Shown in pieces: positions 18,525 to 48,690 of a DNA stretch of 64,000 bases; position 1 is the first letter of the stretch, and each line of letters starts with the position of its first letter. The stretch lies in the NCBI RefSeq assembly GCF_003991155.1, contig NZ_CP031293.1; one strand, 5' to 3'. The notes below the pieces were generated by a model. That model had not been told where the DNA came from, did not search any database, and was given only the letters and a program-made list of their open reading frames with translations. The DNA comes from Escherichia coli. GTDB taxonomy: Bacteria; Pseudomonadota; Gammaproteobacteria; Enterobacterales; Enterobacteriaceae. Position numbers and translations under genes: made by a program.

Positions 18525-18527
18525 CAA

Positions 18528-21653: not shown

Positions 21654-21760
21654 GGGGGATCTTAAGCAATCAGAAGCCAATGACTACGCATTTTTATAAG
21701 CCGGATCATGAAGTTAGACGGCAATTAAGTAAAACTAACGTTTAAGGTGAAAAGTGAAAT

Positions 21761-23413
21761 ATGTCCAAACCATTTATCTGGCAAGAACCGTTTCTACAAA
21801 ATAAAGACGGTACAGAATATACATTAATTAGCGATCAACATATTACAGTAACGGAATTAGACGGCGAAGAAGTGATAAAAATCGCTCCTGAAGCATTAAC
21901 GCTGCTTGCCCGGCAGGCATTTTATGAAGCCTCTTTTTTCTTACGTTCCGCTCATTTGCAACAGGTCGCCAGCATTCTTAACGATCCGCACGCCAGTAGT
22001 AATGATAAATACGTTGCGTTGCAGTTATTACGTAATGCTGAAGTCTCAGCAAAAGGGGTATTACCCAACTGTCAGGATACCGGCACCGCAACTATTGTTG
22101 CCAGTAAAGGGCAACAGATATGGACCGGAGGTAACGACGCTGAAGCCTTAAGCAAAGGCATTTACACCACTTTTCAGGAAAATAATCTGCGCTTTTCACA
22201 AAATGCGCCACTGGATATGTATACCGAAGTCAATACGCAAACCAATCTACCGGCGCAGATTGATATCAGCGCCGTCGCTGGTGATGAGTACCATTTTCTC
22301 TGTATTAATAAAGGGGGCGGCTCTGCCAATAAAGCCGCGCTTTATCAGGAAACCAAATCCCTATTGCAACCAGAAAAACTGACCGCATTTTTAATCGAAA
22401 AAATGAAATCGCTGGGCACCGCTGCCTGCCCGCCTTACCACATCGCCTTTGTCGTCGGAGGGCTTTCAGCCGATCAAACCTTAAAAGTTGCCAAGCTGGC
22501 CTCAACGAAATATTACGACAATTTGCCCACCAGCGGAAACGAGCAAGGACAAGCATTCCGTGATATTGAGCTGGAAAAAGTATTGCTCGAGGCCAGTCAG
22601 CAATTTGGTATTGGTGCGCAATTTGGGGGTAAATATTTCGCTCATGATATTCGCGTCATTCGTCTGCCGCGTCACGGTGGCTCTTGCCCGATAGCTATGG
22701 CGCTCTCCTGTTCTGCGGATCGCAATATCAAAGCAAAAATTAACAAGCACGGTATCTGGCTGGAAAAACTCGAACACAATCCGGGGCAATATATTCCAGC
22801 CTCACTGCGGGAAGAAAATCACGCGCAACATGTACAGCTGGATCTAAACCGTCCGTTGCGTGACGTGATGCAGGATCTCGCCAGATTACCGGTAGGCACC
22901 CGCGTGTCGTTAAGTGGTCCCATCGTAGTGGCGCGCGATATCGCCCACGCCAAAATAAAAGCGCGGCTGGATAGCGGCGAACCGATGCCGGATTACCTGA
23001 AGCATCATATTGTCTATTACGCTGGCCCGGCGAAAACACCGGAGAACATGGCCTGCGGTTCACTGGGTCCAACCACGGGCGGTCGAATGGACGGTTATGT
23101 CGATACCTTCCAGGCGGCTGGCGGCAGTCTGGTGATGTTATCGAAAGGTAACCGCAGCCAGCAGGTCACCGATGCCTGTCACAAACATGGCGGCTTCAAT
23201 CTGGGGAGTATTGGCGGTGCAGCTGCGTTACTGGCGCAAGAATATGTCAAAAGTCTGCGTTGCCTGGAATACCCGGAGCTGGGTATGGAAGCGGTGTGGA
23301 TGATGGAAGTGGAAAATTTACCCGCATTCATCCTGGTAGATGATAAAGGCAATAATTTCTTTAGTCAGTTTGAGCAGCAACACCGCTGCGCCAGTTGCCC
23401 TGCGGGACATTAA
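21761..23413 (+). CDS. fumD: Class I (Fe-S) fumarate hydratase paralogue; probable mesaconase/fumarase FumD of the methylaspartate pathway
   Basis: 550-aa ORF with FumA/FumB-like length and sequence, located in the glm-mal operon. A class I fumarase paralogue encoded with glutamate mutase/methylaspartase in E. coli O157:H7 was reported to act as mesaconase; orthology here is inferred from context. Confidence 0.8.
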
Positions 23414-23422
23414 GGAAAATGA

Positions 23423-24025
23423 ATGGAAGCGCGAATTTCAACTGAACGGCATGTGCAGCGCCAGCAGAAATTGAAGGAACAGGTCGATACGCGCGTCGCG
23501 GCGGCGATAGAGAAAAAAGGGATTTTGATTGTTTTCACCGGCAACGGCAAAGGGAAATCCACTGCCGCGTTTGGTACTGTGACGCGCGCGGTGGGTCATG
23601 GCAAAACGGTGGGGGTTGCGCAGTACATCAAGGGGCAATGGGACAACGGCGAATACAACCTTCTCCAACCGCTGGGGGTTGAGTTTCATATTATGGGAAC
23701 CGGTTTTACCTGGGAGACACAGAACCGGCAAGCGGATATCGACGCGGCGAAAGAGGTCTGGTCGGAAAGCAAACGGATGCTGGCTGACAAGCGTTACGAC
23801 TTAGTGGTGCTTGATGAGCTGACCTATATGCTGGCTTACCATTATCTGGACACCGAAGAAGTGATCGCTTCTCTGCAAAACCGCCCGGCACAACAAAGTG
23901 TCATTGTCACCGGACGCGGTTGCCACAGTCAGATATTAAAAATGGCGGATACGGTCAGCGAAATCCGCCCCGTCAAACATGCTTTTGATAACGGCATTCA
24001 GGCGCAGCCGGGTATCGACTGGTAA
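23423..24025 (+). CDS. Corrinoid adenosyltransferase (CobA/BtuR family, cob(I)alamin adenosyltransferase)
   Basis: 200-aa ORF with P-loop GNGKGKSTAAFG and BtuR/CobA-like length; plausible supplier of adenosylcobalamin for glutamate mutase. Confidence 0.8.
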   Translation: MEARISTERHVQRQQKLKEQVDTRVAAAIEKKGILIVFTGNGKGKSTAAFGTVTRAVGHGKTVGVAQYIKGQWDNGEYNLLQPLGVEFHIMGTGFTWETQNRQADIDAAKEVWSESKRMLADKRYDLVVLDELTYMLAYHYLDTEEVIASLQNRPAQQSVIVTGRGCHSQILKMADTVSEIRPVKHAFDNGIQAQPGIDW

Positions 24026-24028
24026 TAA

Positions 24029-24056
24029 CTGCGCCTGGCATCCCGCCAGGCGCAGG
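24029..24056. terminator. Convergent terminator hairpin (ctgcgcctgg-N8-ccaggcgcag) between the cobA-like and LysR genes
   Basis: 10-bp perfect inverted repeat followed by gtttta on the plus strand; seen directly. Confidence 0.55.
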
Positions 24057-24058
24057 TT

Positions 24059-24964
24059 TTACATCTCCTGCGGTACGACCGATTTCGCCAGCAACCATTC
24101 ACGAAATTGCTGCAAGTGCGGTGAGTCAGACTTCTCTTCCTGCCACGTCATAATAAAACGATTACCGGTACGAATAGGCACATCACAGGGAATCACCATA
24201 TCGCCACTATCCAAATCATGTTGAATAGCGAACCGTGGTAACAGCGCCACGCCGAGATTAGAGCGCACGGCGGCAATCAGCATTGAAAGCAAATCGAAAC
24301 GTGGTCCGTTATTGACCAGCGGACTGCTAACGCCAGATAAAGCAAACCACTCTTCCCAGCCAGTAATACGGGTGCTTTGATGCAGAAGTGGTAACTCAGT
24401 AAGCAGTTCTGCCACTGACAGTTTTTGATCGGACATTGCAAGCAAACTGCCGCTGCATACCGGCAAAATCTCCTCATCAAAGAGATATTCTACTTCCGCC
24501 CAGGGCGCGCAAAAATTTTCGCGCATAATGACAGCATCGTACTCCCGATTAAGAAAATCGCCGTTATTAGCTAAAGAATGAATATTAACAATAATATCGG
24601 GATGTAACTTTGTGAATTCATGTAAATTTGGGATTAACCAGTGGGTACTAAAAGTAGGATTAACGGCAAGTTCAATAACCTGAACCGTAGGCTGCCAGGT
24701 CATAATGGTATTGGTATCGCGTTCCAGCTTATTTAATGTTTCTTTTACTATCCCCAGGTAATACTTCCCTGCATCATTAAGAAAAATGCGTTTTTTAGAG
24801 TGTGAAAATAACGGAGTACGTAAAAATTCCTCCAGCGCACTTACTTGTCTGAATACTGCACTTTGGGTTAACGCTAACTCCTCTGCCGCTCTGGTATAAC
24901 TTTCATGACGTGCGACGACCTCAAAAGTCACCAGCAGTTCCGTTTTAGGTATTTTTCCTCGCAT
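24059..24964 (-). CDS. LysR-family transcriptional regulator
   Basis: 301-aa ORF with N-terminal wHTH (...TFEVVARHESYTRAAEELALTQSAVFRQVSALEE...) and LysR substrate-binding-domain length; AGGGAAGG SD. Confidence 0.85.
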   Translation of the reverse strand: MRGKIPKTELLVTFEVVARHESYTRAAEELALTQSAVFRQVSALEEFLRTPLFSHSKKRIFLNDAGKYYLGIVKETLNKLERDTNTIMTWQPTVQVIELAVNPTFSTHWLIPNLHEFTKLHPDIIVNIHSLANNGDFLNREYDAVIMRENFCAPWAEVEYLFDEEILPVCSGSLLAMSDQKLSVAELLTELPLLHQSTRITGWEEWFALSGVSSPLVNNGPRFDLLSMLIAAVRSNLGVALLPRFAIQHDLDSGDMVIPCDVPIRTGNRFIMTWQEEKSDSPHLQQFREWLLAKSVVPQEM

Positions 24965-25234: not shown

Positions 25235-26905
25235 TTATTTTTGATTTATAGCATATCCTTCTAAGAATTTTTGCGAAGCTGCAATATCTGGGGTAAAGAC
25301 CCGATCCTGGTCGACAAACGGCACGACTTTTCTGTATTCGGTAAACATTGCTTTGGTGGATTTCCCTAATGCCAGTTGTGGATCGGCCTGCAACCGTAAA
25401 TCGAGAGCCTGTGCGGAATGCATCAGTTCAATGCCATAAATCACGTTCAGATTATCGACAACCTGTTTCAATCTTCTGGCCGCGTGGTCATTATTGGCAC
25501 CGGTATCTTCTATACCTCCGGCAACCGGTTGAATATCGAAAGAAACCGGGTTAGCGAGATCGACATTTTCCGCATGCAGCGCAACAAACGGGATATGTAA
25601 TGAACCGAAGCCATGACCTTTATTACCTGCTGCCGACAGGAAGCGTGACAAACCGGTAAAGTGATCATCTTCAAGATGCAGCGAGCGGCGCATACTGTTA
25701 TGTGAAACATGCACTAACGCCACGGTCAGACGCTGGGTGGCAAGCGCAACCGGTAACGATTCGAAATTCGCCGTCGGGAAGATCCCACCGCTGATTGCCC
25801 CATCTTTAACAAAATATTGCGCGACCTGACTGGAGTCCTGATACGCTTTGTCTGCATTCAGCACGGTTGCCGGGTTGTCATCGGAACTGTTGATCTGCAC
25901 GGTAATGGTATCTTCAGCATCGCGCAACGCGCGCATTGCCTCAGAAATGGTATACACCGTCGTTCTGAACGATAACGGATCCTGCAATGCACGTTTGTCA
26001 TGCTTATGCCATAAATAAGAACCACTTAACGCATCGCGAATCTCTTTAGCGGAATCAGCCAACTGCGGGAAAGGACGCACGGCGATCGACTGCGGCAGTA
26101 CCGGCGCGACATTGCCATTCAACGCTTCCAGACTCATAGCGAAAACCACCGGGCTGACATTCAGCAACTGACGTGCCGAACGAACAGCTTCGATAGCGTA
26201 GGCTGTCCCGACGCTGTTGTTCGATAAAATCGCCAGCATATCTTTACCCTGCGGTACCAGTGGCTTAAGTCCCACTTTCGCCAGCGCGTCACCACCGCTC
26301 ATTTGCACGCCATTTACTCGGGCTTTCCATTCCCCCATCATCACCAGACCAACGTGCGAAGCGAGCATAATATCCGCTGCGCCGATACTTCCCCGCACCG
26401 GAATTAACGGTGTAACGCCGCGATTAATAAATTCGGCATACAACTCGGCAATATAAGGCTGTGCGCCGGTTTGCCCATGCAGCATGGTATTTAAACGTAA
26501 TACCATTGAAAGGCGTGCCAGATAATCCGGTAACATCGGACCAACGCCCGCAGAATGGGCGCGCAGCGCGGCAGCATTAAATTTTTTCGACGCGTCAATC
26601 ACCTCAGGCGTTAAATTTCCTTTGGCATCAAATATGGGCTGATCTTTATTTAGCCCCACGCCCACGGTTAAGCCATAAACAGGCGTACCTGAATGCGCGG
26701 CAGTCATCACCAGATCATAACTTTTTTCCATGCGCTCCATGGCGTTCGACGCGATTTTGACGCCGTTATCACCTAATGCAATTGACCAGGCCTGGTCAAT
26801 GGAAAGATGTTCGCCATCCAGCGTAATGGTTGATTTCGCCATCGCAATGGAGCAAACGCTCCAGAGCACAACGGTGACAGTGACTCTTCGTATCAATCCT
26901 TTCAT
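25235..26905 (-). CDS. Histidine ammonia-lyase (HAL/PAL) family protein with N-terminal signal peptide and apparently degenerate MIO motif
   Basis: 556-aa ORF. N-terminus MKGLIRRVTVTVVLWSVCSIAMA-KS looks like a Sec signal peptide; the rest aligns by eye with HutH (YGLTVGVG, ...PVRGSIGAADIMLASH...), but the canonical GASGDL (Ala-Ser-Gly MIO precursor) reads GAADIM. Confidence 0.7.
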   Translation of the reverse strand: MKGLIRRVTVTVVLWSVCSIAMAKSTITLDGEHLSIDQAWSIALGDNGVKIASNAMERMEKSYDLVMTAAHSGTPVYGLTVGVGLNKDQPIFDAKGNLTPEVIDASKKFNAAALRAHSAGVGPMLPDYLARLSMVLRLNTMLHGQTGAQPYIAELYAEFINRGVTPLIPVRGSIGAADIMLASHVGLVMMGEWKARVNGVQMSGGDALAKVGLKPLVPQGKDMLAILSNNSVGTAYAIEAVRSARQLLNVSPVVFAMSLEALNGNVAPVLPQSIAVRPFPQLADSAKEIRDALSGSYLWHKHDKRALQDPLSFRTTVYTISEAMRALRDAEDTITVQINSSDDNPATVLNADKAYQDSSQVAQYFVKDGAISGGIFPTANFESLPVALATQRLTVALVHVSHNSMRRSLHLEDDHFTGLSRFLSAAGNKGHGFGSLHIPFVALHAENVDLANPVSFDIQPVAGGIEDTGANNDHAARRLKQVVDNLNVIYGIELMHSAQALDLRLQADPQLALGKSTKAMFTEYRKVVPFVDQDRVFTPDIAASQKFLEGYAINQK

Positions 26906-26955
26906 TGTGTTTCCTTATCATGATGAGTTTAACAACGGGTTACTGCGACAACGTT

Positions 26956-27906
26956 TTAATTTGTTCTATCTGTTTTCCCCCGCCGGACAATACTGGTCAC
27001 CAGGCGAGCGGCAACTTTCGCAGTTAAATTATCGCGGTCCAGGTCCGGGTTAAGTTCGGCAATATCCGCAGCAATCAACTTCTCGCTACCGGCGATTAAA
27101 TTCACAATGGCTTCAGTAATATTTAACGGCACGCCTAACGGTGATGGAGCAGAAACACCGGGCGCCTGATAACCTGGTAAAACATCGAGACAAATCGTTA
27201 AATAAATGGCGTCACAAGCCTGAATATCTGCCGAGAGCGCATTAGCGATCTCATGCAAACCACGTTCAAATTGCAGAGATTCGTCCAGCCAATAACGCAC
27301 ACCGAGACAATCAGCGCGATCAAATAACGCCTGAGTATTGGCAAAACGACTTATTCCCAGCACGCGATAATGAAACGGTTTGCCATGCTGCGCGTTCCAC
27401 TCTTGCATCTGACGAAACGGCGTACCTGAATTGGCTTGTTCCGCCATCCGTAAATCAAAATGCGCGTCAAGGTTCACAATCAGTAACCGCTGAATATCCG
27501 GACGCGACTGCATAATCCCCTGAAATGTTCCCCACGCCACTTCATGACCGCCCCCCAGAACCACCGGTAAACTGCCGCGCGCAATGGCTGTAGATACGTT
27601 AGCCGCCAGACGATTTTGTGCGGATTCCAGCGCGTGGTCCTCGCTTTGTACATCGCCCATATCGAAAATAGCGCCTTCACAGAGCACTGGCATATTTCCC
27701 AACATGCTGCGCAACGCGCCCGGTCCGCCTGCTGCACCCGCTCGCCCATCATTACGTTGCACTCCGTCATCAACGGCAAAACCAATCAGCGTACAACCGC
27801 CGTGGCTTTGTTCACTAAACGGTTGCACATGCTGATGCCAGCGAGTGCTGATGCCGGTTTCCTGCGAGTCAACACGCCCACTCCACGGCAAAAATGTTTG
27901 CTTCAT
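26956..27906 (-). CDS. hutG: Formimidoylglutamase (arginase-family HutG)
   Basis: ORF-track frame extends to 27945; start set to MKQTFLPW, whose ATG overlaps the hutI stop by 1 nt. Arginase-fold motifs (GGGHEVAWG, NLDAHFDLR, DVLPGYQAPGVSAPSPLG) resemble Salmonella/Klebsiella HutG. Confidence 0.85.
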   Translation of the reverse strand: MKQTFLPWSGRVDSQETGISTRWHQHVQPFSEQSHGGCTLIGFAVDDGVQRNDGRAGAAGGPGALRSMLGNMPVLCEGAIFDMGDVQSEDHALESAQNRLAANVSTAIARGSLPVVLGGGHEVAWGTFQGIMQSRPDIQRLLIVNLDAHFDLRMAEQANSGTPFRQMQEWNAQHGKPFHYRVLGISRFANTQALFDRADCLGVRYWLDESLQFERGLHEIANALSADIQACDAIYLTICLDVLPGYQAPGVSAPSPLGVPLNITEAIVNLIAGSEKLIAADIAELNPDLDRDNLTAKVAARLVTSIVRRGKTDRTN

Positions 27907-29117
27907 TACCAACTCCTTTTTCCGCCGACAATAAGCCCCTGGCAAGGCTGATGCCCAAACCAGTAAGCCAGTTCACGTGGATGATTAAGATCCCAGACCG
28001 CCATATCCGCCCGTAATCCCGGTGCAAGTTCACCCCGGTCAATAAGTCCAAGTGCCTTTGCCGCATTACGCGTAACGCCCTGAACGGCTTCCAGCGGCGT
28101 CATGCGAAACAGCGTACAGGCCATATTGATCATCAATGGCAATGACATATTGGGAGACGTTCCGGGATTATGGTCCGTGGAGATAGCAATCGGCACACCT
28201 GCGGCCCGCAGAGCGACAATCGGCGGCAGATGGGTTTCGCGCAGGAAGTAATAAGCACCGGGAAGCAAAACCGCCACTGTTCCAGCCGCTTTCATGGCGG
28301 CGATCCCCGACTCGCTCAGGTACTCCAGATGATCGCAGGAGAGTGCAGAAAACGCCGCTGCCAGCGCCGCGCCTTGCTGGTCAGAAAGCTGTTCGGCATG
28401 CAGTTTTACAGGTAATCCATAGCTTTGCGCTTTACTGAAAACGCGCCGTACCTGCTCTGGAGTAAAGGCGATGTTTTCACAAAAAGCATCAACTGCATCA
28501 ATCAGCCCCTGTTCATGCAACACGCACATCCAGTCGCAAAGCGCCGTAATGTAATCATCACTGCGCCCGGCAAACTCTGGCGGCAGGCTGTGCGCCCCGA
28601 GAAACGTAGACTGAATATGTAACCCGGTAGATTGCTGCAAGCGGCGGATCACGCGTAAACAACGTGCTTCATCTTCCAGCGTTAAGCCATAACCCGATTT
28701 GATTTCAAGCGTACTGACGCCTTCACGTTGCCAGTTTCGCAGTCGCTGCGCCGCCAGTTCAAACAACTGTGTTTCGCTGGCTGCCCGCGTGGCATTAACC
28801 GTAGATAAGATCCCGCCGCCCGCTCTGGCGATATCTTCATAAGCCACGCCTTGCAACCGCATCTCAAACTCGTTCGCCCTCTGGCCGCCATACACCAGAT
28901 GTGTATGACAATCCACCAGACCGGGTGTCAGCAACTTACCCTGTAGATCGTGTTCCTCTGTAATATCAGCCGTCAGTTCACGGGGGATCTGCGTGGCCTT
29001 CCCAAGCCAGACAATCGAGTCACCACGGCTGATTAATGCCCCCTTTTCAATCACTCCCCAATCGTTAGCGGAAAGCGTCGCCAGCGTGGTATTTCGCCAG
29101 AGCGTTAATGCACTCAT
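27906..29117 (-). CDS. hutI: Imidazolonepropionase
   Basis: ORF-track frame extends to 29150; start set to MSALTLWRN (ATGA overlap with the hutD stop). Amidohydrolase motif DCHTHLVYGG and overall collinearity with HutI. Confidence 0.85.
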   Translation of the reverse strand: MSALTLWRNTTLATLSANDWGVIEKGALISRGDSIVWLGKATQIPRELTADITEEHDLQGKLLTPGLVDCHTHLVYGGQRANEFEMRLQGVAYEDIARAGGGILSTVNATRAASETQLFELAAQRLRNWQREGVSTLEIKSGYGLTLEDEARCLRVIRRLQQSTGLHIQSTFLGAHSLPPEFAGRSDDYITALCDWMCVLHEQGLIDAVDAFCENIAFTPEQVRRVFSKAQSYGLPVKLHAEQLSDQQGAALAAAFSALSCDHLEYLSESGIAAMKAAGTVAVLLPGAYYFLRETHLPPIVALRAAGVPIAISTDHNPGTSPNMSLPLMINMACTLFRMTPLEAVQGVTRNAAKALGLIDRGELAPGLRADMAVWDLNHPRELAYWFGHQPCQGLIVGGKRSW

Positions 29118-29704
29118 AAGGATTTTTCCCCTCGTAGATAATAAAGCCACCAGCCCGCCAGCTCACCGACGGAGACTTTCTTCCGTGGTACGAAACGCCA
29201 GGGCCTGCCATCAGGTGCAACCAGCCATAACAACATATTTGCCGCGACAAACACCCTTTTCTTGCCGCTTATCCACTCCCCTTCACACAGCGTGAACAGG
29301 CCCGCTTGCGCAAGTGACGGAGGACGCCAGTCAACGGCACTTTGCACCCGCAACATCCCCGCATCGCCTTCCCGCGCCATAACATTCAGATCGCGAACCC
29401 CGCCGCCCAGCAGCTGGCAATCAGGCATAGCTTCTCCAGGGAAAATTAAGGCGGGATCGTGACGTTGCAGGTTGATGATCGAATCGGCAAACGTTAGCTT
29501 CACCCCTTCCCCGTCGAGAATCGCGAGGCCACGAACCACGCCAGGCCACGCTGAAAAAGAGCCATCCTGACTGACATTCGCCATACTGATGCGCAACAAC
29601 CAGTTTTCATCATCGGGCCAGGCAAGCAGCTGTCGGGTAAACCCCCCGCCGTTGCGCCACGGTTGCAGCGGCTTATCCATTGCAGAAATCAGCATCGGTT
29701 CCAT
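29114..29704 (-). CDS. hutD: HutD/Ves-family protein
   Basis: 196-aa ORF with the PWRNGGG motif I associate with HutD/Ves; located within the hut cluster. Confidence 0.7.
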   Translation of the reverse strand: MEPMLISAMDKPLQPWRNGGGFTRQLLAWPDDENWLLRISMANVSQDGSFSAWPGVVRGLAILDGEGVKLTFADSIINLQRHDPALIFPGEAMPDCQLLGGGVRDLNVMAREGDAGMLRVQSAVDWRPPSLAQAGLFTLCEGEWISGKKRVFVAANMLLWLVAPDGRPWRFVPRKKVSVGELAGWWLYYLRGEKSL

Positions 29705-29705
29705 A

Positions 29706-31115
29706 TTAAGACTCGGGATAAATCGTATAAGCAGGAACGCAGGTGGTGCGTTTGGCCCACGGGTAATAGATAACGGCGGTAATTAACAAGCCGACAATCC
29801 AGGAGATATCCGCCCCATCCATCAGGACAGAAATGGGTCCCTGATACAGTTTTTGATTCAGGAAGGGGATCTGCACCAACACGCCTACGCCATAGCACGT
29901 CAAAGCGGTTTTGTTATACGCGCCATAACGCCCTTCCGGGGTATAAAGTGCCGGAATATCGGTTTTACCTTGTGAGATGAAGTAGTAGTCGATGAGATTA
30001 ATGGCGCTCCACGGCACAAATACCGTCAACAGCAGCAGAACGAAGTTTTTGAAATTATTCAAAAAATCTGCGCTTGCCGCCAGCGCGACGACCATCGACA
30101 ACAGCACGAACCCTACAACGTAGGCAGCACGAACACGCTGTGAAACCTGACTGCGATTATTAAAGGCGCTGACGGTCGCCAGAATCGACATAAAGCCACC
30201 GTAGGCATTCAAACAGTTCACCGTCAGTTTGCCGCAAACAATCACCGTATAAATCAGAATGGCGAAGGTGGGTCCGGCTAACTCACCCATAAAACCAACC
30301 TGATCCTTCAGGAAGTTAGCACCACAGGCCGCAACAAGCACGCCAAACGTCATGGCACATTGCGCGCCAAGCGTGGTTCCCAGAAAGGTGGCAAAGAAGA
30401 TTGATTTTGCTGGCGTATCAGAGGGTAAATAGCGGGAATAATCAGAGGCGTAAGGGGCAAACGTTAATTGCCATCCGGCAGAGAGAGCAATCGTTAATAA
30501 AAAGACCGACAGACTAAATGGCTTTTGACCAAATGCCGCAGCCACATCGTAGTGACCGCTAAGTTGAGTGGCCAGGTAAATAAACCCCAGAATACTTAAT
30601 ATCCCTGCAACACGGCCAACGACGTGAATAAGTTTATAACCGACCAATGCGATCATCGCGGTCAGCATGCCGAAAATAATAATTCCGGTCGATGCCGATT
30701 CGAAACCAAATATCCGGTTAATCGCCTGACCGGATAATACTGTACCCGTCGCGGCAAATCCAAGGTACATAATAATCACCATCAGTAACGGTAGCGCCGC
30801 TCCTTTAACGCCAAAGCGGATACGACTGGAGATCATCTGGGGTAATCCCAGCTTTGCCCCCTGCGACGAGTGCAATGCCATTACTGCACCACCAATAATA
30901 TTACCGATTAATAAACCAATTATTGCTGACATGGCTTCGGAGCCAAAAATAATCGCTAACGCGCCGTCCACCACAGCGGTAATTTGTAAGTTAGCACTTA
31001 GCCATAAAGTAAACTGACTGGATGGCGAGCCGTGGCGAGCAGACTCAGGAACGGCGTTAATCGTATTTGATTCTAATACTGGCTTTTTACTGCGGATAGG
31101 GCTGCTTGATTCCAT
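29706..31115 (-). CDS. NCS1-family permease (cytosine/purine/uracil/thiamine/allantoin permease family); putative urocanate/histidine-related transporter
   Basis: ORF-track frame extends to 31160; start set to MESSSPIRSK (AGGAGA SD 7 nt upstream). Multi-TM protein with NCS1/CodB-like layout; substrate inferred only from the hut context. Confidence 0.75.
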   Translation of the reverse strand: MESSSPIRSKKPVLESNTINAVPESARHGSPSSQFTLWLSANLQITAVVDGALAIIFGSEAMSAIIGLLIGNIIGGAVMALHSSQGAKLGLPQMISSRIRFGVKGAALPLLMVIIMYLGFAATGTVLSGQAINRIFGFESASTGIIIFGMLTAMIALVGYKLIHVVGRVAGILSILGFIYLATQLSGHYDVAAAFGQKPFSLSVFLLTIALSAGWQLTFAPYASDYSRYLPSDTPAKSIFFATFLGTTLGAQCAMTFGVLVAACGANFLKDQVGFMGELAGPTFAILIYTVIVCGKLTVNCLNAYGGFMSILATVSAFNNRSQVSQRVRAAYVVGFVLLSMVVALAASADFLNNFKNFVLLLLTVFVPWSAINLIDYYFISQGKTDIPALYTPEGRYGAYNKTALTCYGVGVLVQIPFLNQKLYQGPISVLMDGADISWIVGLLITAVIYYPWAKRTTCVPAYTIYPES

Positions 31116-31278
31116 GAAAAAGTCTCCTGCAAAATGAGAGGTCATTTTTTGAAACAGCAATAGAGGGTCGGGAGATATTTCTCTCGACGATGTAAAAATA
31201 TTTTTTGATAATTATTGTTATACAGGCGAATTATTCTCCGCCTGTATTAGCGCAAATATTAAATGACGGCGTTAATAT

Positions 31279-32976
31279 TTAGCGAATCATCGGTAATTTC
31301 AGACCATAGTTTTTGGCACATTCAATTGCCGCTTCATAACCCGCATCCGCATGACGCATAACCCCGGACGCACAGTCATTCACCAGCACACGCGCCAGAC
31401 GTTTTTCGGCTTCTTCGCTACCATCGGCAACAATAACCATCCCGGCGTGTTGTGAATACCCCATCCCGACGCCGCCGCCATGATGCAGGGATACCCACGT
31501 TGCTCCCCCTGCAGTGTTGAGCAAACCGTTGAGCAACGGCCAGTCAGAAACCGCATCACTGCCATCAAGCATGCTTTCGGTTTCGCGGTTCGGGCTGGCG
31601 ACAGAACCGGTATCAAGATGATCGCGCCCAATCACAATCGGTGCTTTTAGTTCACCGTTGCGCACCATTTCGTTGAATGCCAGCCCCGCCAGGTGACGCT
31701 CACCAAGCCCCAGCCAGCAAATACGTGAAGGAAGTCCCTGGAAGGCAATGCGCTCGCGCGCCATATCCAGCCAGCGATGCGTCAGTACGTTATTGGGGAA
31801 CAACTCTTTAATTTTGGCATCAGTTTTATAGATATCTTCCGGGTCGCCAGACAGCGCCACCCAACGGAATGGACCTTTGCCTTCACAAAACATTGGACGA
31901 ATATAAGCCGGAACAAAGCCCGGGAAATCAAAGGCATTTTGCAGACCTTCGTTGAAGGCCACCTGGCGGATGTTGTTGCCATAATCGACAACCGGGATCC
32001 CCATCGCCTGGAAGTCCAGCATCCCCTGAACATGTGCGACGCAGCTCTGTGCCGCTTCTTTTTGCAATCTGGCGTGTTGCTGTGGATCCTGCTGTGCAGC
32101 GCGCCATTGTTCTACGCTCCAGCCCATCGGTAGGTAGCCATAAACCAGATCGTGAGCGGAAGTCTGGTCGGTCACCAGATCCGGCTTGATCGCCCCCTGA
32201 CGTGCACGTTTCACCAGTTCAGGAACAATTTCCGCCGCATTGCCCAACAGCGCGATTGAAACAGCGTCTTTGCGCTCAGTATGGTATTTAATCAGCGCCA
32301 GTGCATCATCGAGATCTTTCGCTTGTTTATCGACATAACGGGTACGCAGACGGAAGTCGATGCTACTTTGCTGGCACTCGATATTTAATGAACACGCCCC
32401 CGCCAGAGTCGCCGCCAGCGGTTGTGCACCGCCCATACCACCTAGCCCTGCGGTCAGGATCCATTTTCCACTCAGCGAATTGTTGTAGTGCTGACGACCC
32501 GCTTCAACAAAGGTTTCGAACGTTCCCTGCACAATGCCCTGACTACCGATGTAGATCCACGAGCCAGCGGTCATCTGGCCGTACATGAACAGACCTTTAC
32601 GATCCAGTTCATTGAAATGATCCCAGTTGGCCCATTGCGGTACCAGGTTAGAGTTGGCAATCAATACGCGCGGCGCATCGGTATGCGTTTTAAACACGCC
32701 TACGGGTTTACCGGACTGAACCAGCAGTGACTCATCAGCTTCCAGATTTTTCAGTGATTCAAGGATTTTGTCAAAACACTCCCAGTTACGTGCCGCACGA
32801 CCAATACCACCATACACCACCAGATGCTGTGGATTTTCGGCAACGTCGGGATCAAGGTTGTTCTGCAACATCCGATAGGCAGCTTCGATCTGCCAGTTTT
32901 TGCAGTGCAGCTGCGTACCGTGTGGCGCATGGATTACACGGCTGGTATCAATACGCGGGTCTGAAGGCTTACTCAT
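31279..32976 (-). CDS. hutU: Urocanate hydratase (urocanase)
   Basis: ORF-track frame extends to 33075; start set to [11 protein letters not shown] (AGGAG SD). Near-collinear with canonical HutU (...[17 protein letters not shown]..., ...[15 protein letters not shown]..., ...[11 protein letters not shown]...). Confidence 0.9.
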
Positions 32977-33733
32977 GAATCTTCTCCTGTTACTTGATAA
33001 AATTAAACGCTGTAATCGGTCAGAAAAAACGAACGAATGAATATAGAAACGGTTTCTATAATTCCCGTTTATCATTTTGTATTATTAATTCATTTAGTGA
33101 ATATTGTTTGTCGTGGTATATTCACTATGAATATAAATTCAAAACCACCAACGCGTTGTATGCGAATTCAATATGCTTAATTTAACTTGTCGAAAAAGTG
33201 ATATTGTTGGCAAAATATTTTCTAATTTGAACATATGAATATGATGAGATTGCAAGATGTCAGTAATTTAATTATATGAGAAATGCGTTAATAACGACCA
33301 GATATTAGCGTAACAACAGGTGTTCCGACACCACACAGTGCGCATAACACAATGATATTTAAAATAAGATCTTCATTATTCGTCATAAAGACATGTTTTA
33401 TTATCATTAATAATCCATTTGTTTTCATCCCACTTTTGATAATTAAAAAACGGCAACAATGGATAGTTACCCGACGTAAAAACAGGCGTAAAAATAAATC
33501 TTAAAATATATCCACTGGAAATTATCATTTTTCATATTTTACAATCTGGCGTCGATAACTGACCCCTTTTATAACACCCCCGTTTGTTAATAGTCTTTTT
33601 TATCTTGTATTGATCGTCATTGCTGCATACACTACGCGCGTTTTCTTTCCCTTTTGCTGGCTGCTGACCGGAAAGACAAAATTACCCTCGCAATAAAGGG
33701 GGTTGTTTAACGTCTATATTTCAGGACAGCGTT

Positions 33734-35131
33734 ATGCATCATCTTTCAAGGCTTGATAAAGCCTTTCTGCGCAAAGGGATCCAACTTTCCCGCGCCAACA
33801 ATATTGTTTCATTATGTCGTCCATCAGGAGCCAGTGCCCACGTACTGCTGCCGGACGAACTGCCGCTGGAAGAAAAAGCAGTGACACAACTGCTTGATTT
33901 TGCAGAAGTGAAGATACCAGACCATCCAGGTTACGTACGCCAGACCTGTGCGACGCCAGATTTTCATCCCGGCAATGGCGTCCCCGTTGGCGCGGTAGTC
34001 GCCTCTACGCCGGATTTAGTCATTCCTGCGGCCATCGGCACCGATATTTCTTGTGGCATGCGGCTGCTGACGACCGGATTAACACTTGAGCAAGCCGAAG
34101 CGAATAAAGAAATAATCACTCAGCGGTTAACACAAGTGTTACTGCAAAATGAGCGCGATGTTCCGTTATCCGCACGAGCGTTCACCGCGCTTTTTGATGG
34201 CGGACCGGCAGATTGCATGTCGGCCTTGCCATCAGCAGGTCTCTGGACACGTACAAATATCCCCCGAATGACGCAAGAGATTGACCGCTGCATTGGGCTT
34301 AACGAGCATAACAGTCATTCGCGTTATGCCCCACCCGCCCTACTGGTAACGGACCGCCCATTACTCCGCGATCCTTGTCTTGGTACGCCGGGTTCAGGTA
34401 ATCATTTTATTGAACTTCAGGTGGTTGATAGCGTGGTTGATCGCCATGTTGCCTGGCAACAAGGGCTGAAAACGGGCGATATTGTGGTGATGATCCACAG
34501 TGGATCGCGAGATGTTGGCTTTTACGTCGGAAGACGCTGGATGGATCGCGCCCGTGCTGAATGGCCCACCGGACATAAACATCCACAAAGCGGGTTATAT
34601 GGCCTGGCAGGCGGACTGGCGGAGGAATATCTACAAGCGATGGGAATGGCGGCGCGTTACGCGTGGTTAAATCGCGTCACAATTGCCGAAATGGTGCGCG
34701 TATGTCTTGCCAATCTCTTTCATCAGGACAATTCGCATCTGGTGGTGGATGTGCCGCATAACATCATCCTTCGCGAGCATGAAATGAATATTCATCGCAA
34801 AGGTGCAACACCGGCACGCGCGGGCAATCTGGCGTTAATCCCCGGTTCAATGGGCGATTATTCGTGGCTTGCAGTCGGTTGCGGCAACCCGGAGTGGCTG
34901 TGGTCTTGCAGTCACGGAGCAGGACGCAGCCAGCGTCGGCAGGCCATGCACTCACGCGCGACTGAAGAGTCAACGTTGCCGTGGCAATGCGTCACATTGC
35001 GCGAAGAACGGCGTATTGAAGAAGCGCCAGCTGCTTATAAAGATATTGGTCCGGTTATCGAAGCCCAACAAGAGGCCGGATTAATTCATCCAGCGGTTAG
35101 ATTCCGACCGTGGTTAACGTTTAAGGCATAA
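33734..35131 (+). CDS. RtcB-family RNA ligase paralogue with about 35-55 residue N-terminal extension
   Basis: 465-aa ORF with RtcB signatures by eye: IPAAIGTDISCGMRLL, GSGNHFIELQ, MIHSGSRDVG, ALIPGSMGDYSW, SCSHGAGRSQRR, AYKDIGPVIEAQ. Confidence 0.85.
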   Translation: MHHLSRLDKAFLRKGIQLSRANNIVSLCRPSGASAHVLLPDELPLEEKAVTQLLDFAEVKIPDHPGYVRQTCATPDFHPGNGVPVGAVVASTPDLVIPAAIGTDISCGMRLLTTGLTLEQAEANKEIITQRLTQVLLQNERDVPLSARAFTALFDGGPADCMSALPSAGLWTRTNIPRMTQEIDRCIGLNEHNSHSRYAPPALLVTDRPLLRDPCLGTPGSGNHFIELQVVDSVVDRHVAWQQGLKTGDIVVMIHSGSRDVGFYVGRRWMDRARAEWPTGHKHPQSGLYGLAGGLAEEYLQAMGMAARYAWLNRVTIAEMVRVCLANLFHQDNSHLVVDVPHNIILREHEMNIHRKGATPARAGNLALIPGSMGDYSWLAVGCGNPEWLWSCSHGAGRSQRRQAMHSRATEESTLPWQCVTLREERRIEEAPAAYKDIGPVIEAQQEAGLIHPAVRFRPWLTFKA

Positions 35132-35229
35132 AAAAAGGCCATCATATGATGGCCAACCATGTCGAAACCGACAGCCCTTCGCCATTCCTGTAGAGGGAAG
35201 CGGCGAGGGCTATTTCTTATTACAGATAT
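35132..35229 (-). ncRNA. sdhX: sucD 3'UTR, expected position of the SdhX (RybD) small RNA, ending in an intrinsic terminator
   Basis: About 98 nt between the sucD stop and a GGCCATCATATGATGGCC hairpin (35137..35154) followed on the minus strand by a U-run. SdhX is known to be processed from the sucD 3'UTR; its sequence was not verified here. Confidence 0.5.
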
Positions 35230-36099
35230 TTATTTCAGAACAGTTTTCAGTGCTTCACCGATATCCGCCAGGCTGCGAACGGTTTTCACGCCTGCGGCTT
35301 CCAGAGCAGCGAATTTCTCATCCGCAGTCCCTTTCCCACCGGCAATGATCGCACCTGCGTGACCCATACGTTTGCCTTTCGGCGCAGTCACACCAGCGAT
35401 GTAACCTACAACTGGCTTGGTAACGTGCTCTTTGATGTATGCAGCCGCTTCTTCTTCAGCGCTACCACCGATCTCACCGATCATCACGATCGCTTCGGTC
35501 TGCGGATCTTTTTCGAACATTTCGAGGATGTCGATAAAGTTAGAGCCAGGGATCGGGTCGCCGCCGATACCAACACAGGTCGACTGACCGAAACCGTAAT
35601 CCGTGGTCTGTTTAACCGCTTCATAGGTCAGTGTACCGGAACGGGAAACGATACCCACTTTACCCGGTTTGTGAATGTGACCAGGCTGGATACCGATTTT
35701 GCATTCACCCGGAGTGATAACGCCCGGGCAGTTCGGGCCGATCATGCGAACGCCCGCTTCATCCAGTTTCACCTTCACGGTCAGCATATCCAGCGTCGGG
35801 ATGCCTTCAGTGATGGTGATAATCAGTTTGATGCCTGCATCAATAGCTTCCAGAATGGAGTCTTTGCAGAACGGTGCTGGTACGTAGATAACAGAAGCGG
35901 TAGCGCCAGTAGCAGCAACAGCTTCACGCACGGTGTTGAACACCGGCAGGCCGAGGTGGGTGGTGCCGCCTTTACCTGGGGTTACGCCGCCAACCATTTT
36001 AGTGCCGTATGCAATAGCCTGTTCTGAGTGGAAAGTCCCCTGGCTACCGGTAAAGCCCTGGCAGATAACCTTGGTGTTTTTATCAATTAAAATGGACAT
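35230..36099 (-). CDS. sucD: Succinyl-CoA synthetase alpha subunit
   Basis: 289-aa ORF matching E. coli SucD. Confidence 0.95.
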
Positions 36100-37265
36100 T
36101 ATTTCCCCTCCACTGCGGCAACAACCTGCTGAGCTGCATCCGTCAGACCTTTTGCTGCAATAATATTCAGGCCGCTGTCAGCCAGTTTCTTCGCGCCGAG
36201 TTCGGCGTTGTTACCTTCCAGACGTACCACGACCGGTACGTTAACACCCACTTCCGCTACCGCGCCGATGATACCGTCAGCGATCAGGTCGCAACGAACG
36301 ATACCGCCGAAGATGTTAACCAGAACGGCTTTCACTTTGTCGTCAGAGAGGATGATTTTGAACGCTTCGGTTACGCGCTCTTTGGTTGCGCCGCCGCCAA
36401 CGTCCAGGAAGTTAGCTGGTTCGCCGCCGTGCAGTTTAACGATGTCCATGGTGCCCATCGCCAGGCCTGCGCCGTTAACCATACAACCGATGTTACCGTC
36501 CAGCGCAACGTAGTTCAGTTCCCACTGTGCAGCCTGTGCTTCACGCGGATCTTCCTGCGACTGGTCACGCATTTCGCGCAGATCAGGCTGGCGGAACAGT
36601 GCGTTGCCATCAGCGCCCAGTTTGCCGTCGAGGCAAATCAGATCGCCCTGTTTGGTGATGACCAGCGGGTTGATTTCGATCAGCGCCAGGTCGCGCTCCA
36701 GGAAAATGGTCGCCAGGCCCATGAAGATTTTGGTGAACTGCTGAACCAGTTTACCTTCCAGACCCAGTTTGAACGCCAGCTCGCGTCCCTGATACGGCAT
36801 CGGGCCAGTCAGCGGATCAAGCGCAACTTTGTGGATCAGGTGCGGAGTTTCTTCCGCCACTTTTTCGATTTCCACGCCGCCTTCGGTGGAGGCCATAAAG
36901 ACCACGCGACGTGAACTACGGTCTACAACGGCACCGAGATACAGCTCTTTAGCGATATCGGTCGCTGCTTCAACCAGAATCTGGTTAACCGGTTGGCCAT
37001 TGGCATCTGTTTGATACGTTACCAGACGCTTGCCCAGCCAGTTTTCTGCAAAAGCACGGATGTCTTCTTTGCTGTTTACCACTTTCACACCGCCCGCTTT
37101 ACCGCGGCCACCAGCGTGAACCTGACATTTCACTACCCACGGACCGGCACCGATTTTTGAAGCGGCTTCTTCTGCTTCGCGCGGAGTAGTACAGGCATAA
37201 CCCACCGGTGCTGGTAAGCCATAGCGGGCAAAAAGTTGTTTTGCCTGATATTCATGTAAGTTCAT
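36099..37265 (-). CDS. sucC: Succinyl-CoA synthetase beta subunit
   Basis: 388-aa ORF matching E. coli SucC. Confidence 0.95.
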
Positions 37266-37358
37266 GTGTTCTGTCCATCCTTCAGTAATCGTTATCTTTT
37301 AAACCGTAGACCGACACCCTATCCACGTCGGTCTACAGTGCAGGTGAAACTTAAACTA

Positions 37359-41392: not shown

Positions 41393-41561
41393 CGTGATCC
41401 CTTAAGCATCTTTTTTATGCTTACTTCGCCGTGGATACTACCACGCACAGTGATGTGCGTGCCGGGGTTCACTTGCGAGCTCTTGTCTACGTAGTGGCTC
41501 GCGAAGGAACCTTTAAAAACTGTCTTAGTGTCAGGGGCAGTTTTTAAAGATTTCCTGAATA

Positions 41562-41581
41562 GCCGGGGGATTTCCCCGGCA
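41562..41581 (-). other. GC-rich hairpin (agccggggga-tttccccggc) in the sdhB-sucA intergenic region; possible attenuating/processing structure within the sdh-suc transcript
   Basis: Inverted repeat seen directly, 12 nt downstream of the sdhB stop on the transcribed strand; function not established from sequence. Confidence 0.3.
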
Positions 41582-41592
41582 TCAACATTTAA

Positions 41593-42309
41593 TTACGCAT
41601 TACGTTGCAACAACATCGACTTGATATGGCCGATGGCGCGCGTCGGGTTCAGCCCCTTCGGACATACACTGACGCAGTTCATGATGCTGTGACAGCGGAA
41701 TACACTGAATGCATCGCTCAAACCGTCGAGGCGGCTGTCAGTCTCGGTATCACGGCTATCGATCAGGAAACGATATGCCGCTAACAAGCCTGCCGGGCCG
41801 ATAAACTTATCGGGATTCCACCAGAAAGACGGACAAGAGGTTGAACAACATGCGCAGAGAATACATTCATACAACCCGTCGAGTTTTTCGCGCTGCTCTG
41901 GCATCTGTAAATGCTCGCGAGCTGGCGGATTTTGTCCATTATTCAACAGGTAAGGCTTAATTTTCTCATATTGCGCATAGAATTGTCCCATGTCTACCAC
42001 CAAATCGCGGATCACCGGTAAACCTGGCAGCGGGCGAATCACAATCTTCTTGCCCGGCTGGTTGAGTGCCGAAATCGGGGTAATACAGGCCAGACCATTC
42101 TTGCCGTTCATGTTCAGACCGTCGGAACCGCACACACCTTCGCGGCAGGAGCGGCGGAACGACAGGCTGGGATCTTTCTCTTTCAGCTGGATAAGCGCAT
42201 CCAGCAGCATCATGTCGCGACCTTCTTCCGCTTCCAGGGTGTAATCCTGCATACGCGGAGCATCATCAACATCCGGGTTATAGCGATAAATTGAAAACTC
42301 GAGTCTCAT
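41593..42309 (-). CDS. sdhB: Succinate dehydrogenase iron-sulfur subunit
   Basis: 238-aa ORF matching E. coli SdhB (Cys clusters for the 2Fe-2S, 4Fe-4S and 3Fe-4S centres). Confidence 0.95.
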   Translation of the reverse strand: MRLEFSIYRYNPDVDDAPRMQDYTLEAEEGRDMMLLDALIQLKEKDPSLSFRRSCREGVCGSDGLNMNGKNGLACITPISALNQPGKKIVIRPLPGLPVIRDLVVDMGQFYAQYEKIKPYLLNNGQNPPAREHLQMPEQREKLDGLYECILCACCSTSCPSFWWNPDKFIGPAGLLAAYRFLIDSRDTETDSRLDGLSDAFSVFRCHSIMNCVSVCPKGLNPTRAIGHIKSMLLQRNA

Positions 42310-45529: not shown

Positions 45530-46813
45530 ATGGCTGATACAAAAGCAAAACTCACCCTCAACGGGGACACAGCTGTTGAACTGGATGTGCTGAAAGGCAC
45601 GCTGGGTCAAGATGTTATTGATATCCGTACTCTCGGTTCAAAAGGTGTGTTCACCTTTGACCCAGGCTTCACTTCAACCGCATCCTGCGAATCTAAAATT
45701 ACTTTTATTGATGGTGATGAAGGTATTTTGCTGCACCGCGGTTTCCCGATCGATCAGCTGGCGACCGATTCTAACTACCTGGAAGTTTGTTACATCCTGC
45801 TGAATGGTGAAAAACCAACTCAGGAACAGTATGACGAATTTAAAACTACGGTGACCCGTCATACCATGATCCACGAGCAGATTACCCGTCTGTTCCATGC
45901 TTTCCGTCGCGACTCGCATCCAATGGCAGTCATGTGTGGTATTACCGGCGCGCTGGCGGCGTTCTATCACGACTCGCTGGATGTTAACAATCCTCGTCAT
46001 CGTGAAATTGCCGCGTTCCGCCTGCTGTCGAAAATGCCGACCATGGCCGCGATGTGTTACAAGTATTCCATTGGTCAGCCATTCGTTTACCCGCGCAACG
46101 ATCTCTCCTATGCCGGTAACTTCCTGAATATGATGTTCTCCACGCCGTGCGAACCGTATGAAGTTAATCCGATTCTGGAACGTGCTATGGACCGTATTCT
46201 GATCCTGCACGCTGACCATGAACAGAACGCCTCTACCTCCACCGTGCGTACCGCTGGCTCTTCGGGGGCGAACCCGTTTGCCTGTATCGCAGCAGGTATT
46301 GCTTCACTGTGGGGACCTGCGCACGGTGGTGCTAACGAAGCGGCGCTGAAAATGCTGGAAGAAATCAGTTCCGTTAAACACATTCCGGAATTTGTTCGTC
46401 GTGCGAAAGACAAAAATGACTCTTTCCGCCTGATGGGCTTCGGCCACCGCGTGTACAAAAATTACGACCCGCGCGCCACCGTAATGCGTGAAACCTGCCA
46501 TGAAGTTCTGAAAGAGCTGGGCACCAAAGATGACCTGCTGGAAGTGGCTATGGAGCTGGAAAACATCGCGCTGAACGACCCGTACTTTATCGAGAAAAAA
46601 CTGTACCCGAACGTCGATTTCTACTCTGGTATCATCCTGAAAGCGATGGGTATTCCGTCTTCTATGTTCACCGTGATCTTCGCGATGGCGCGTACCGTTG
46701 GCTGGATCGCCCACTGGAGCGAAATGCACAGTGACGGTATGAAGATTGCCCGTCCGCGTCAGCTTTACACCGGCTACGCGCAGCGTGATTTTAAGTCGGA
46801 TATTAAGAAGTAA
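45530..46813 (+). CDS. gltA: Citrate synthase (type II)
   Basis: 427-aa ORF matching E. coli GltA. Confidence 0.95.
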
Positions 46814-46830
46814 AAATGACACCGACAAAA

Positions 46831-46855
46831 CCCTGCGTGTTCACGCAGGGTTTTT
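46831..46855. terminator. Intrinsic terminator hairpin (ccctgcgtg-ttca-cgcaggg + T5) after gltA; A-run on the other side makes it plausibly bidirectional for the convergent TRAP operon
   Basis: Seen directly: aaaa-ccctgcgtgttcacgcaggg-ttttt. Confidence 0.7.
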
Positions 46856-46859
46856 AGTT

Positions 46860-48170
46860 CTACACCAACAGCAAAGATATTGCCGGGATATAGGTAATAA
46901 CCAACAGCAGTAAAATAAGACTAACCAGTAGTGGCACCGCTTCTCGCATAAATTGCCCGACAGAAACCTGCACGGTATTACATACCAGCAGCATCACCGT
47001 TCCGACAGGCGGTGATAACGTTCCTAACGATAAGTTGAGGATCATGATGATGCCAAAATGCACCGGATCAATGCCAAAATGAGCCACCACAGGTTTAAGT
47101 AATGGAACTAATATCAGCAGGATGGCACTACCTTCAAGAAACATGCCAAGCACCAGCAGCAATAGATTGATAATCAATAAAAAGACGTATTTATTATCAG
47201 TCAGAGATGTCACAAACTCCGCAACCGTGATACCTGCCCGCTCAAGGGAAAATATCCAGCCCAGCGCGGCACTCGCCATAATGATTAACATGACCGATGC
47301 CGTCGAACGCGCCGTCTCTGAGAGTGCTGTAAATACATGGCTGATTTTCAGTTCGCGATAAATTACAAAACCAATAAACATCACCAATAATACTGCTACG
47401 GCTCCAGCTTCCGTTGGCGTAAAGATATTTGCCCGAATACCACCGATAACCGCAACAATTAAGAACAGTGCTGGCCAGGCCTGCACCAGCGCCACTGACA
47501 CTTCTTTCGGTTTTGGCCAGTGTTCGCTGGAAGGTTTTAAACCGCGCCGAATAGCTACCAGCCATACAGTGACAATCAACATGGCGGAACACAGCAGACC
47601 GGGCAGGATCCCGGCCATAAACATGGAGCCGATGGAGACATCCGCCACCAGTCCGTAAAGGATCAGTGCAATACCCGGTGGAATAATTGGTGTAATCAGC
47701 GAACCACTTGCCGTTATCGCCGCCGCAAAGCCACGGGAATAACCTTTCTGTTCCATTTCCGGCACCATCATGCGCGATAACATCGCAGCATCCGCCAGGT
47801 TTGAGGCGCTAACGCCGCCCATCATGGTACTGACCAGAATATTAGCCCCACCCAGACCACCGCGCATTCTGCCAATCAACACGTTGGCAATTTGCAAAAT
47901 ACGCGCGGCAATACCGGTATAGCTCATTAACGTGCCTAATAAGATAAAAAATGGAATAGCTAACAGCGAAGGGGTTTGCGTCGTGGCAATCAAACGCTGA
48001 ATTGCTACCATTAACGGCACATTTGAATAGCAAAGGAAGTAGGTCAGAATGCCGCAAAACATCGCCAGCCATACCGGCATATTGATAAATAAACAGATGA
48101 ACATAAGCGGAATGATCATTAGCCAGTTATCCAGCCAGCTTCCCGCCAGTAATTCACTCAATGCTGTCAT
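46860..48170 (-). CDS. TRAP transporter large permease subunit (DctM family)
   Basis: 436-aa polytopic membrane protein; ATGA overlap with the upstream small-permease gene; family call from size, hydrophobicity and the DctP/Q/M gene triad. Confidence 0.85.
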   Translation of the reverse strand: MTALSELLAGSWLDNWLMIIPLMFICLFINMPVWLAMFCGILTYFLCYSNVPLMVAIQRLIATTQTPSLLAIPFFILLGTLMSYTGIAARILQIANVLIGRMRGGLGGANILVSTMMGGVSASNLADAAMLSRMMVPEMEQKGYSRGFAAAITASGSLITPIIPPGIALILYGLVADVSIGSMFMAGILPGLLCSAMLIVTVWLVAIRRGLKPSSEHWPKPKEVSVALVQAWPALFLIVAVIGGIRANIFTPTEAGAVAVLLVMFIGFVIYRELKISHVFTALSETARSTASVMLIIMASAALGWIFSLERAGITVAEFVTSLTDNKYVFLLIINLLLLVLGMFLEGSAILLILVPLLKPVVAHFGIDPVHFGIIMILNLSLGTLSPPVGTVMLLVCNTVQVSVGQFMREAVPLLVSLILLLLVITYIPAISLLLV

Positions 48171-48631
48171 TATTCACCTTCCTTGCGTGGCGTTTTCTTG
48201 ATCAGGTGTAAGGCAGTAAAACAGGCGATACCGATTGCACCAACCGTGACCGCAATATCGATCCAAAACCAGGATATTTTTAATATTTGCGTGGTTTTAA
48301 ATGCTGTTCCGGCAGCTAATTTCCATGCTGACCAAGCCATCACACTCAGTAAAACAATAGATATCAGAGAGACAAATAACGTTAAAACACGTTGCACGCG
48401 TGGTGTCAGTGCATCAGCTAAAAATGGAATCGACAAATGGGTATTATCCCGCTCGGCAACGACCGCACCAAACATGACTACCCAAATCATTAATAAACCG
48501 GAAACCTCTTCTGTCCACTGTAATGGCATATGAAAACAGTAACGCATTATTACCGCAGCAATGGTCATGATTACCAATATAAAGAGCGTTAATACCGCAG
48601 CAACTTCAATCATTTTCCCTAAAAGACGCAT
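48170..48631 (-). CDS. TRAP transporter small permease subunit (DctQ family)
   Basis: ORF-track frame extends to 48667; start set to the internal Met (MRLLGKMIEVAAV...) with an AGAGG SD; start is uncertain. Four predicted TM segments. Confidence 0.75.
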   Translation of the reverse strand: MRLLGKMIEVAAVLTLFILVIMTIAAVIMRYCFHMPLQWTEEVSGLLMIWVVMFGAVVAERDNTHLSIPFLADALTPRVQRVLTLFVSLISIVLLSVMAWSAWKLAAGTAFKTTQILKISWFWIDIAVTVGAIGIACFTALHLIKKTPRKEGE

Positions 48632-48690
48632 AAACACCTCTGCTCTTAACGGTCGGTGCCGAAACACCGACCAGTCCTTATGCCATGAAG

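Follow-up and report, generated by a model that had tools for sequence, protein, structure and literature searches.

The 3′ untranslated region (3′UTR) of sucD in Escherichia coli, source of the small RNA SdhX, lies directly against DNA that differs between strains, which raises the question of whether this point is the site where an island was inserted or simply the place where conserved sequence ends. The question was addressed in a 64,000-nt stretch of E. coli DNA (the window), in which sucD, the last gene of the sdhCDAB-sucABCD operon, is found on the minus strand at 35230–36099, with its TAA stop codon at 35230–35232. The gene was taken from the list of open reading frames and is annotated as sucD in the record NZ_CP029747.1 (E. 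coli 2016C-3878), which is 100% identical to the window over 33000–37000 and carries the same annotation for sucD and the neighbouring rtcB.

Read on the minus strand, the sucD 3′UTR extends from 35229 to the last U at 35130, a length of 100 nt rather than the ~98 nt given in a preliminary description of the locus, whose identification of the stretch as SdhX with a hairpin and a U-run holds. The SdhX (RybD) region was delimited at 35130–35229 by alignment to the K-12 sRNA and by its presence in E. coli genomes. In K-12, the ncRNA sdhX (b4764) is annotated at 765050–765150, starting 1 nt after sucD, and the stop codon of mngR lies 2 nt past its annotated end. The alignment to K-12 sdhX, which the preliminary description had suggested as a check, is identical from the sucD stop to the U-run save for a single substitution in the terminator loop (G in K-12, A in the window) and one extra U in the window (7, against 6 in K-12), and similarity between the two ends directly after the U-run. 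The seed, UUCGACAUGGU (35156–35166, minus strand; core CGACAU), was read directly from the sequence as defined in PMC6393394 and is located just 5′ of the terminator. Divergence at this position would, according to the same description, have told against the identification; the seed is unchanged with respect to K-12. The E. coli-specific part upstream of the seed is identical to K-12 when taken as one whole stretch, within which the katG-pairing bases were not mapped separately. Judged by this alignment, the stretch is the known SdhX sRNA together with the operon terminator, intact and essentially identical to that of K-12.

The Rho-independent terminator is formed by the hairpin GGCCAUC-AUAU-GAUGGCC, corresponding to GGCCATCATATGATGGCC (35137–35154, minus strand; assigned from the fold, a terminator scan and covariation), and by a U-tract of 7 U at 35130–35136 (minus strand; from the sequence and the K-12 alignment). 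A 99-nt UTR was folded with an energy of −40.8 kcal/mol (z = −4.77 relative to shuffled sequences). The terminator scan alone is not discriminating, with 6 sites called against 4.0 ± 2.3 expected, and it is homology and covariation, not the generic scan, that set the hairpin above chance. It aligns base for base with the annotated K-12 sdhX, and its 7-bp stem is 99.3% paired over 21 distinct enterobacterial versions, with compensatory changes across genera in the three inner pairs (AU/GC, CG/UA and CG/UA); the outer four pairs are partly fixed by the pattern used in the search and carry no information on covariation. The first base of the loop varies within E. coli (A, G or T), being A in the window, G in K-12 SdhX and T in Nissle and E. 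albertii. A search against Rfam 15 gave no SdhX match at the gathering threshold over 20000–50000, and an E-value scan of 35000–35400 likewise brought up no SdhX model, returning only chance-level terminator matches to RprA (E = 7.5) and RyhB (E = 1.5). Compared with SdhX of K-12 and Salmonella, the window has the same site right after the sucD stop, the same seed and the same 7-bp GC-rich hairpin with its U-tail, while the convergent neighbour is rtcB in the window and mngR in K-12.

SdhX (RybD) is an sRNA of E. coli K-12 and Salmonella, reportedly described by De Mets et al. in 2019. It is an Hfq-binding RNA, released by RNase E from the ~10-kb operon mRNA, and represses ackA, with whose start region the seed pairs, while katG is a target of the E. 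coli-specific upstream part, and removing the entire 3′UTR leads to lower SucD (Miyakoshi et al. 2019, PMC6393394). As a homologue of the K-12 and Salmonella sRNA, SdhX of the window would be excised from the operon transcript by RNase E, would bind Hfq via its hairpin and U-tail, and would repress ackA through its seed and, in E. coli, also katG and fdoG.

SdhX was found in 5,424 of 5,426 complete E. coli genomes, whatever neighbour adjoins it (presence being defined as at least 80% coverage of a 103-nt query, and genome counts representing non-independent events). The sole genome in which coverage falls below 80% through an IS1 is that of E. coli FDAARGOS_944 (NZ_CP065613.1; locus L008, 8248–8945), where the element lies between the seed and the hairpin, at the equivalent of ~35157. 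This isolate is a natural SdhX/terminator disruption mutant, and the disruption is viable at least in that isolate. Essentially no deletions or replacements removing the terminator were seen. Across species, an 18-nt pattern of seed plus stem, run against one genome per species, yielded 50 loci, 43 of them enterobacterial, and all 43 have the hairpin and the U-run. The seed is identical in these 43 loci, which were retrieved with a pattern that contains it. The remaining seven loci, in non-enterics, are chance matches with neither hairpin nor U-run, and served as a negative control. The pattern is consistent with purifying selection, whether on SdhX, on the stability of the mRNA, on termination of the operon or on a combination of these. 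The selected trait may be termination or the stability of the sucD mRNA as much as the sRNA; loss of the entire 3′UTR is reported to have lowered SucD (PMC6393394).

Homology to K-12 is restricted, according to BLAST, to positions 7640–11558 and 35131–36779 of the window. The intervening segment of ~23.6 kb (11559–35130; delimited by BLAST and the annotation of the closest record) contains two hypothetical genes, a methylaspartate (glutamate mutase) cluster, a LysR regulator, a hut operon and rtcB, where K-12 has mngR-mngA-mngB. Comparison of the junction with the island-free K-12, also suggested in the preliminary description, thus places the break at 35131, at the end of the U-run, and the claim that acquired DNA begins right outside the terminator is correct to the nucleotide as far as the boundary is concerned, its reading as an insertion point being another matter (see below). 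The same right-hand break, at exactly 35131, was obtained against Nissle, HB37, E. albertii, E. coli E69, Citrobacter FP75 and Citrobacter Res13, and the gene that follows SdhX encodes a TPR protein in Nissle and HB37, a PocR-type regulator in Citrobacter FP75 and an Asp/Glu-racemase-like protein in Citrobacter Res13. The border on the cydA side is staggered (11558, 11823 and 13038). Between sucD and cydA the region is multi-allelic, and on one side of it the conserved core block ends with the last base of the terminator.

Nearly all of the complete E. coli genomes (5,420 of 5,426) fall into four types according to the neighbour of SdhX, which is mngR in 3,882, the methylaspartate cluster with only remnants of rtcB and HAL in 835, the TPR gene in 547 and an intact rtcB in 156. 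This resembles the general concept of accessory-gene hotspots between E. coli core genes, without a tRNA or an integrase, in that the interval from sucD to cydA is occupied by alternative gene sets, which recombination and deletion exchange or erode. It differs from that concept in that a functional RNA fixes one border to the nucleotide while the other is staggered. The locus is the edge of an ordinary variable region, and the differences seen there are ordinary genome variation.

Several features of the segment and its surroundings were observed along the way. The methylaspartate (B12-dependent glutamate mutase) cluster at 13982–24964 comes with a class I fumarase, cobO and the LysR regulator, and several Citrobacter species have a homologous LysR (84–86% amino acid identity) downstream of sucD, with PocR and a tetrapyrrole methylase lying between. 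A complete hut cluster that K-12 lacks (hutH-like HAL, hutG, hutI, hutD, a permease and hutU) is present at 25235–32976; only ~3% of complete E. coli genomes have it intact beside rtcB, and its decay has occurred independently in several Escherichia lineages. In the spacer between hutU and rtcB, a 119-nt AT-rich piece (33165–33283) reaches 94% identity with E. albertii, a species in which hut and rtcB are missing and whose adjacent island DNA matches at only ~84%; Nissle and E69 have weaker copies, and the piece could be a conserved regulatory or RNA element or a mere remnant. An IS1A and its 9-bp target duplication, which in strain 2016C-3878 lie between a hypothetical gene and glmS (at 13395–13404 in window coordinates), are absent from the window. 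On the other side of the junction, BLAST alignments to other E. coli break in the spacers between sucC and sucB (37314–37329) and between sdhB and sucA (41560–41593), which in some strains are 180–350 nt longer, probably through REP-type insertions. A second variable region flanks the TCA operon at ~46807–54756, from gltA to abrB, where the window has a gene set of a TRAP transporter, a UxaA-type dehydratase, an SDR and an RraA-like gene; its place is taken in other E. coli by ybgQ-type fimbrial genes or a remnant. A tandem tRNA-Lys/tRNA-Val array downstream of cpoB (1375–2087; 7 genes in the closest record) gives many internal repeat matches.

The gene convergent with sucD encodes a 465-aa paralogue of the RtcB family of RNA ligases (33734–35131, plus strand; from the list of open reading frames), which matches the Pfam RtcB profile over positions 7–425 of 426 (E = 6.7e-95). 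The PrfH-associated RtcB subfamily was considered, but NCBIfam matches fell below the equivalog cut-offs and no subfamily was assigned. The paralogue is solitary, without rtcA, rtcR or prfH, and divergent from the hut operon. Its nearest named relatives outside Escherichia are from beta-proteobacteria and Pseudomonas (60–67% identical), which makes an ancient horizontal origin of part of the island plausible. The TAA stop codon of rtcB, at 35129–35131, is 5 nt from the base of the hairpin; the close abutment on the opposite strand that had been described earlier is thus real, its distance being 5 and not 6 nt. The codon overlaps the U-run by 2 nt, its AA being complementary to the last two U. 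Such an overlap is normal and no special feature, since mngR does likewise: in at least 13 other enterobacterial species its TAA extends over exactly 2 nt of this U-run, while in K-12 a gap of 4 nt separates the mngR stop from the U-run. The convergent mngR-sucD pairs of Enterobacter, Kluyvera, Leclercia, Citrobacter braakii and Huaxiibacter therefore share with the window a TAA placed over the last 2 nt of the U-tract, although the neighbour there is a GntR-type repressor and not an RNA ligase, and although their arrangement looks old and vertically kept, whereas the abutment of rtcB appears to have been made by a deletion.

The grounds for the latter lie in two loci in which rtcB and SdhX are further apart. 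E. coli SCU-172 has the order sucD-SdhX-TPR-rtcB C-terminal fragment-LysR-methylaspartate cluster, and a divergent metagenomic contig (Logan contig L060, ~80% identical) has hut-rtcB-TPR gene-SdhX terminator, with an RtcB protein 86% identical to that of the window. In both, rtcB ends in its own stop codon (GGG TAA in SCU-172, GGA TGA in L060) followed by a conserved hairpin, and the window lacks both the stop and the hairpin, the present last codon and TAA of its rtcB being different from these. Aligned with SCU-172, the window has two matching blocks, one on the rtcB side that ends at 35126 (...TTTAAGG) and one on the terminator side that starts at 35131 (AAAAAAGGCC...); in BLAST, positions 13924–14244 of locus L062 correspond to 34806–35126 of the window, and those from 15927 onward to 35131 onward. 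The TPR gene, together with the stop and hairpin proper to rtcB, makes up the ~1.7 kb that the window lacks. Because the match to the end of rtcB runs to 35126 and that to the terminator flank starts at 35131, the four bases between them, CATA at 35127–35130 (located by BLAST and a three-way alignment), are most likely the scar of a ~1.7 kb deletion, not an insertion point, with the qualification that the scar is only 4 nt long and that the shared ATAAAAAA is low-complexity sequence.

Remnants elsewhere mark the other alleles as deletion derivatives of the same island. The E. coli genomes with rtcB remnants keep pieces of HAL (25235–25372 and 25715–25776) and of rtcB (34858–34914 and 35090–35131), which marks them as deletion derivatives of the arrangement in the window, and the TPR-type genomes (Nissle and E69) have fragments of the hutU-rtcB spacer and of the 5′ end of hutU beyond the TPR gene. 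E. whittamii and Escherichia sp. E1V33 have the 3′ end of rtcB against SdhX and other deletions elsewhere. The scar junction itself is found in these two and in a ~95%-identical MAG, so it is old and did not arise recently in the window strain. The ancestral composite island would have had the order sucD-SdhX-TPR-rtcB-hut-LysR-methylaspartate cluster-cydA. From it, a deletion of ~1.7 kb would have taken the TPR gene together with rtcB's own stop and 3′ hairpin, ending 2–4 nt from the U-run, and the present TAA of rtcB would have been built from the A-run of the terminator. One composite island, eroded differently by lineage, would be the simplest history, in which the polarity of TPR loss is suggested by parsimony over a few genomes. 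An intact SdhX terminator against which rtcB came to lie through a ~1.7 kb deletion from an older composite island is thus, in our assessment, the probable explanation of the locus.

It could also be proposed that a single event, ending just outside the terminator, brought in a foreign island, either by insertion or in place of mngR-mngAB, in which case the junction between rtcB and SdhX would be original and TPR a later insertion. The exact ends of K-12 homology at 35131 and 11558 speak for this, as does the wide occurrence of the mng arrangement in other genera, and the beta-proteobacterial and Pseudomonas relatives of RtcB fit an old horizontal origin. Such an event is nevertheless unlikely, given that the TPR-rtcB order occurs both in SCU-172 and in a contig as divergent as L060, that rtcB in both has the stop and conserved downstream hairpin missing from the window, that TPR-type genomes hold hut and rtcB-spacer remnants beyond the TPR gene, and that the junction shared with E. 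whittamii, Escherichia sp. E1V33 and the MAG is not recent here. As for mng, mngR is convergent with sucD in Enterobacter, Kluyvera, Leclercia, Lelliottia, Citrobacter braakii and Huaxiibacter, with MngR ~70% identical to that of K-12, and the island allele or its remnants are found in every representative of the non-coli Escherichia species retrieved. That selection kept SdhX while mng was replaced, as first proposed, is borne out for the retention of SdhX (5,424 of 5,426 genomes), while the replacement of mng by acquired DNA in the window strain, and with it the direction of change, is not established. A literature search on a methylaspartate/mngR/sucD island found nothing relevant. The palindromic terminator might itself be thought of as an att-like target of site-specific integration or recombination, considering that at least six neighbours (mngR, rtcB, TPR, the PocR-type regulator, the Asp/Glu-racemase-like gene and cydA directly) start within a few nt of the U-run. 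We consider this extremely improbable: the left borders are staggered, the two island borders share no direct or inverted repeat of at least 9 nt, and a search of the island annotation and its borders for an integrase or recombinase gene and flanking att repeats found none, the closest record having no annotated integrase or transposase in the island save a strain-specific IS1 absent from the window. The composition is not clearly foreign either, with a GC content in 1.5-kb windows of 0.38–0.56 in the island against 0.52–0.58 in sdh-suc, lower mainly in intergenic and hypothetical-gene stretches.

The deletion reading leaves rtcB without its own 3′ hairpin, which bears on the earlier proposal that the SdhX hairpin is shared by both convergent genes. 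Bidirectional intrinsic terminators between convergent genes, reportedly described by Ju, Li and Liu in 2019, resemble the window in having one hairpin between two convergent stops, flanked by an A-tract and, on the opposite side, a U-tract. The geometry of the proposal is right, and the palindrome folds on both strands; shared termination is not supported, because the hairpin lacks a U-tract on the rtcB strand. The U-tract of the window is present in the sucD direction only, and in the rtcB direction the hairpin is followed by AACCAUGUCG (AACCAUG); the terminator scan called only the minus-strand site and no plus-strand terminator. About 40 nt further on the rtcB strand, across the whole SdhX antisense region, there is a second hairpin with a U-rich tail. 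It is the antisense copy of the SdhX 5′ stem-loop (35173–35211) followed by the U-rich UAUUUCUUAUUA (together 35173–35223, plus strand; from the plus-strand fold, and not called by the terminator scan), and is a possible candidate for a place where read-through from rtcB would stop. After loss of the rtcB terminator by deletion, transcription would cross the U-less palindrome and the whole SdhX region, and would possibly stop only at this stem-loop. Taken together, the lost hairpin, the two-way fold and the second hairpin could be read as a true bidirectional terminator for rtcB and sucD, or as rtcB read-through that modulates SdhX in antisense. Considering that the plus strand has no U-tract after the palindrome and that mngR shows the same geometry in at least 13 species, we hold this broader reading to be quite unlikely; to our knowledge, no such effect has been reported for the convergent mngR geometry. 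Its more specific form, in which read-through over SdhX gives an antisense RNA of perfect complementarity by which SdhX is titrated or destabilised in the ~3% of E. coli with this allele, seems very improbable. If true, acetate/TCA-cycle regulation would be coupled, in a strain-specific manner, to how an RNA-repair ligase is expressed.

The finding matters little beyond annotation and opens no new mechanism. It is useful for annotating the variable region between sucD and cydA, with its mng, TPR, rtcB-hut and methylaspartate alleles, and it calls for caution, as a place where an island appears to start need not be an insertion site. Whichever of at least four alternative gene sets lies downstream in E. 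coli, and across many enterobacterial genera, SdhX and its terminator are preserved to the nucleotide, and the deletions that erode the neighbouring island stop before the terminator, which provides a natural example of the constraint on a 3′UTR-derived sRNA and operon terminator.
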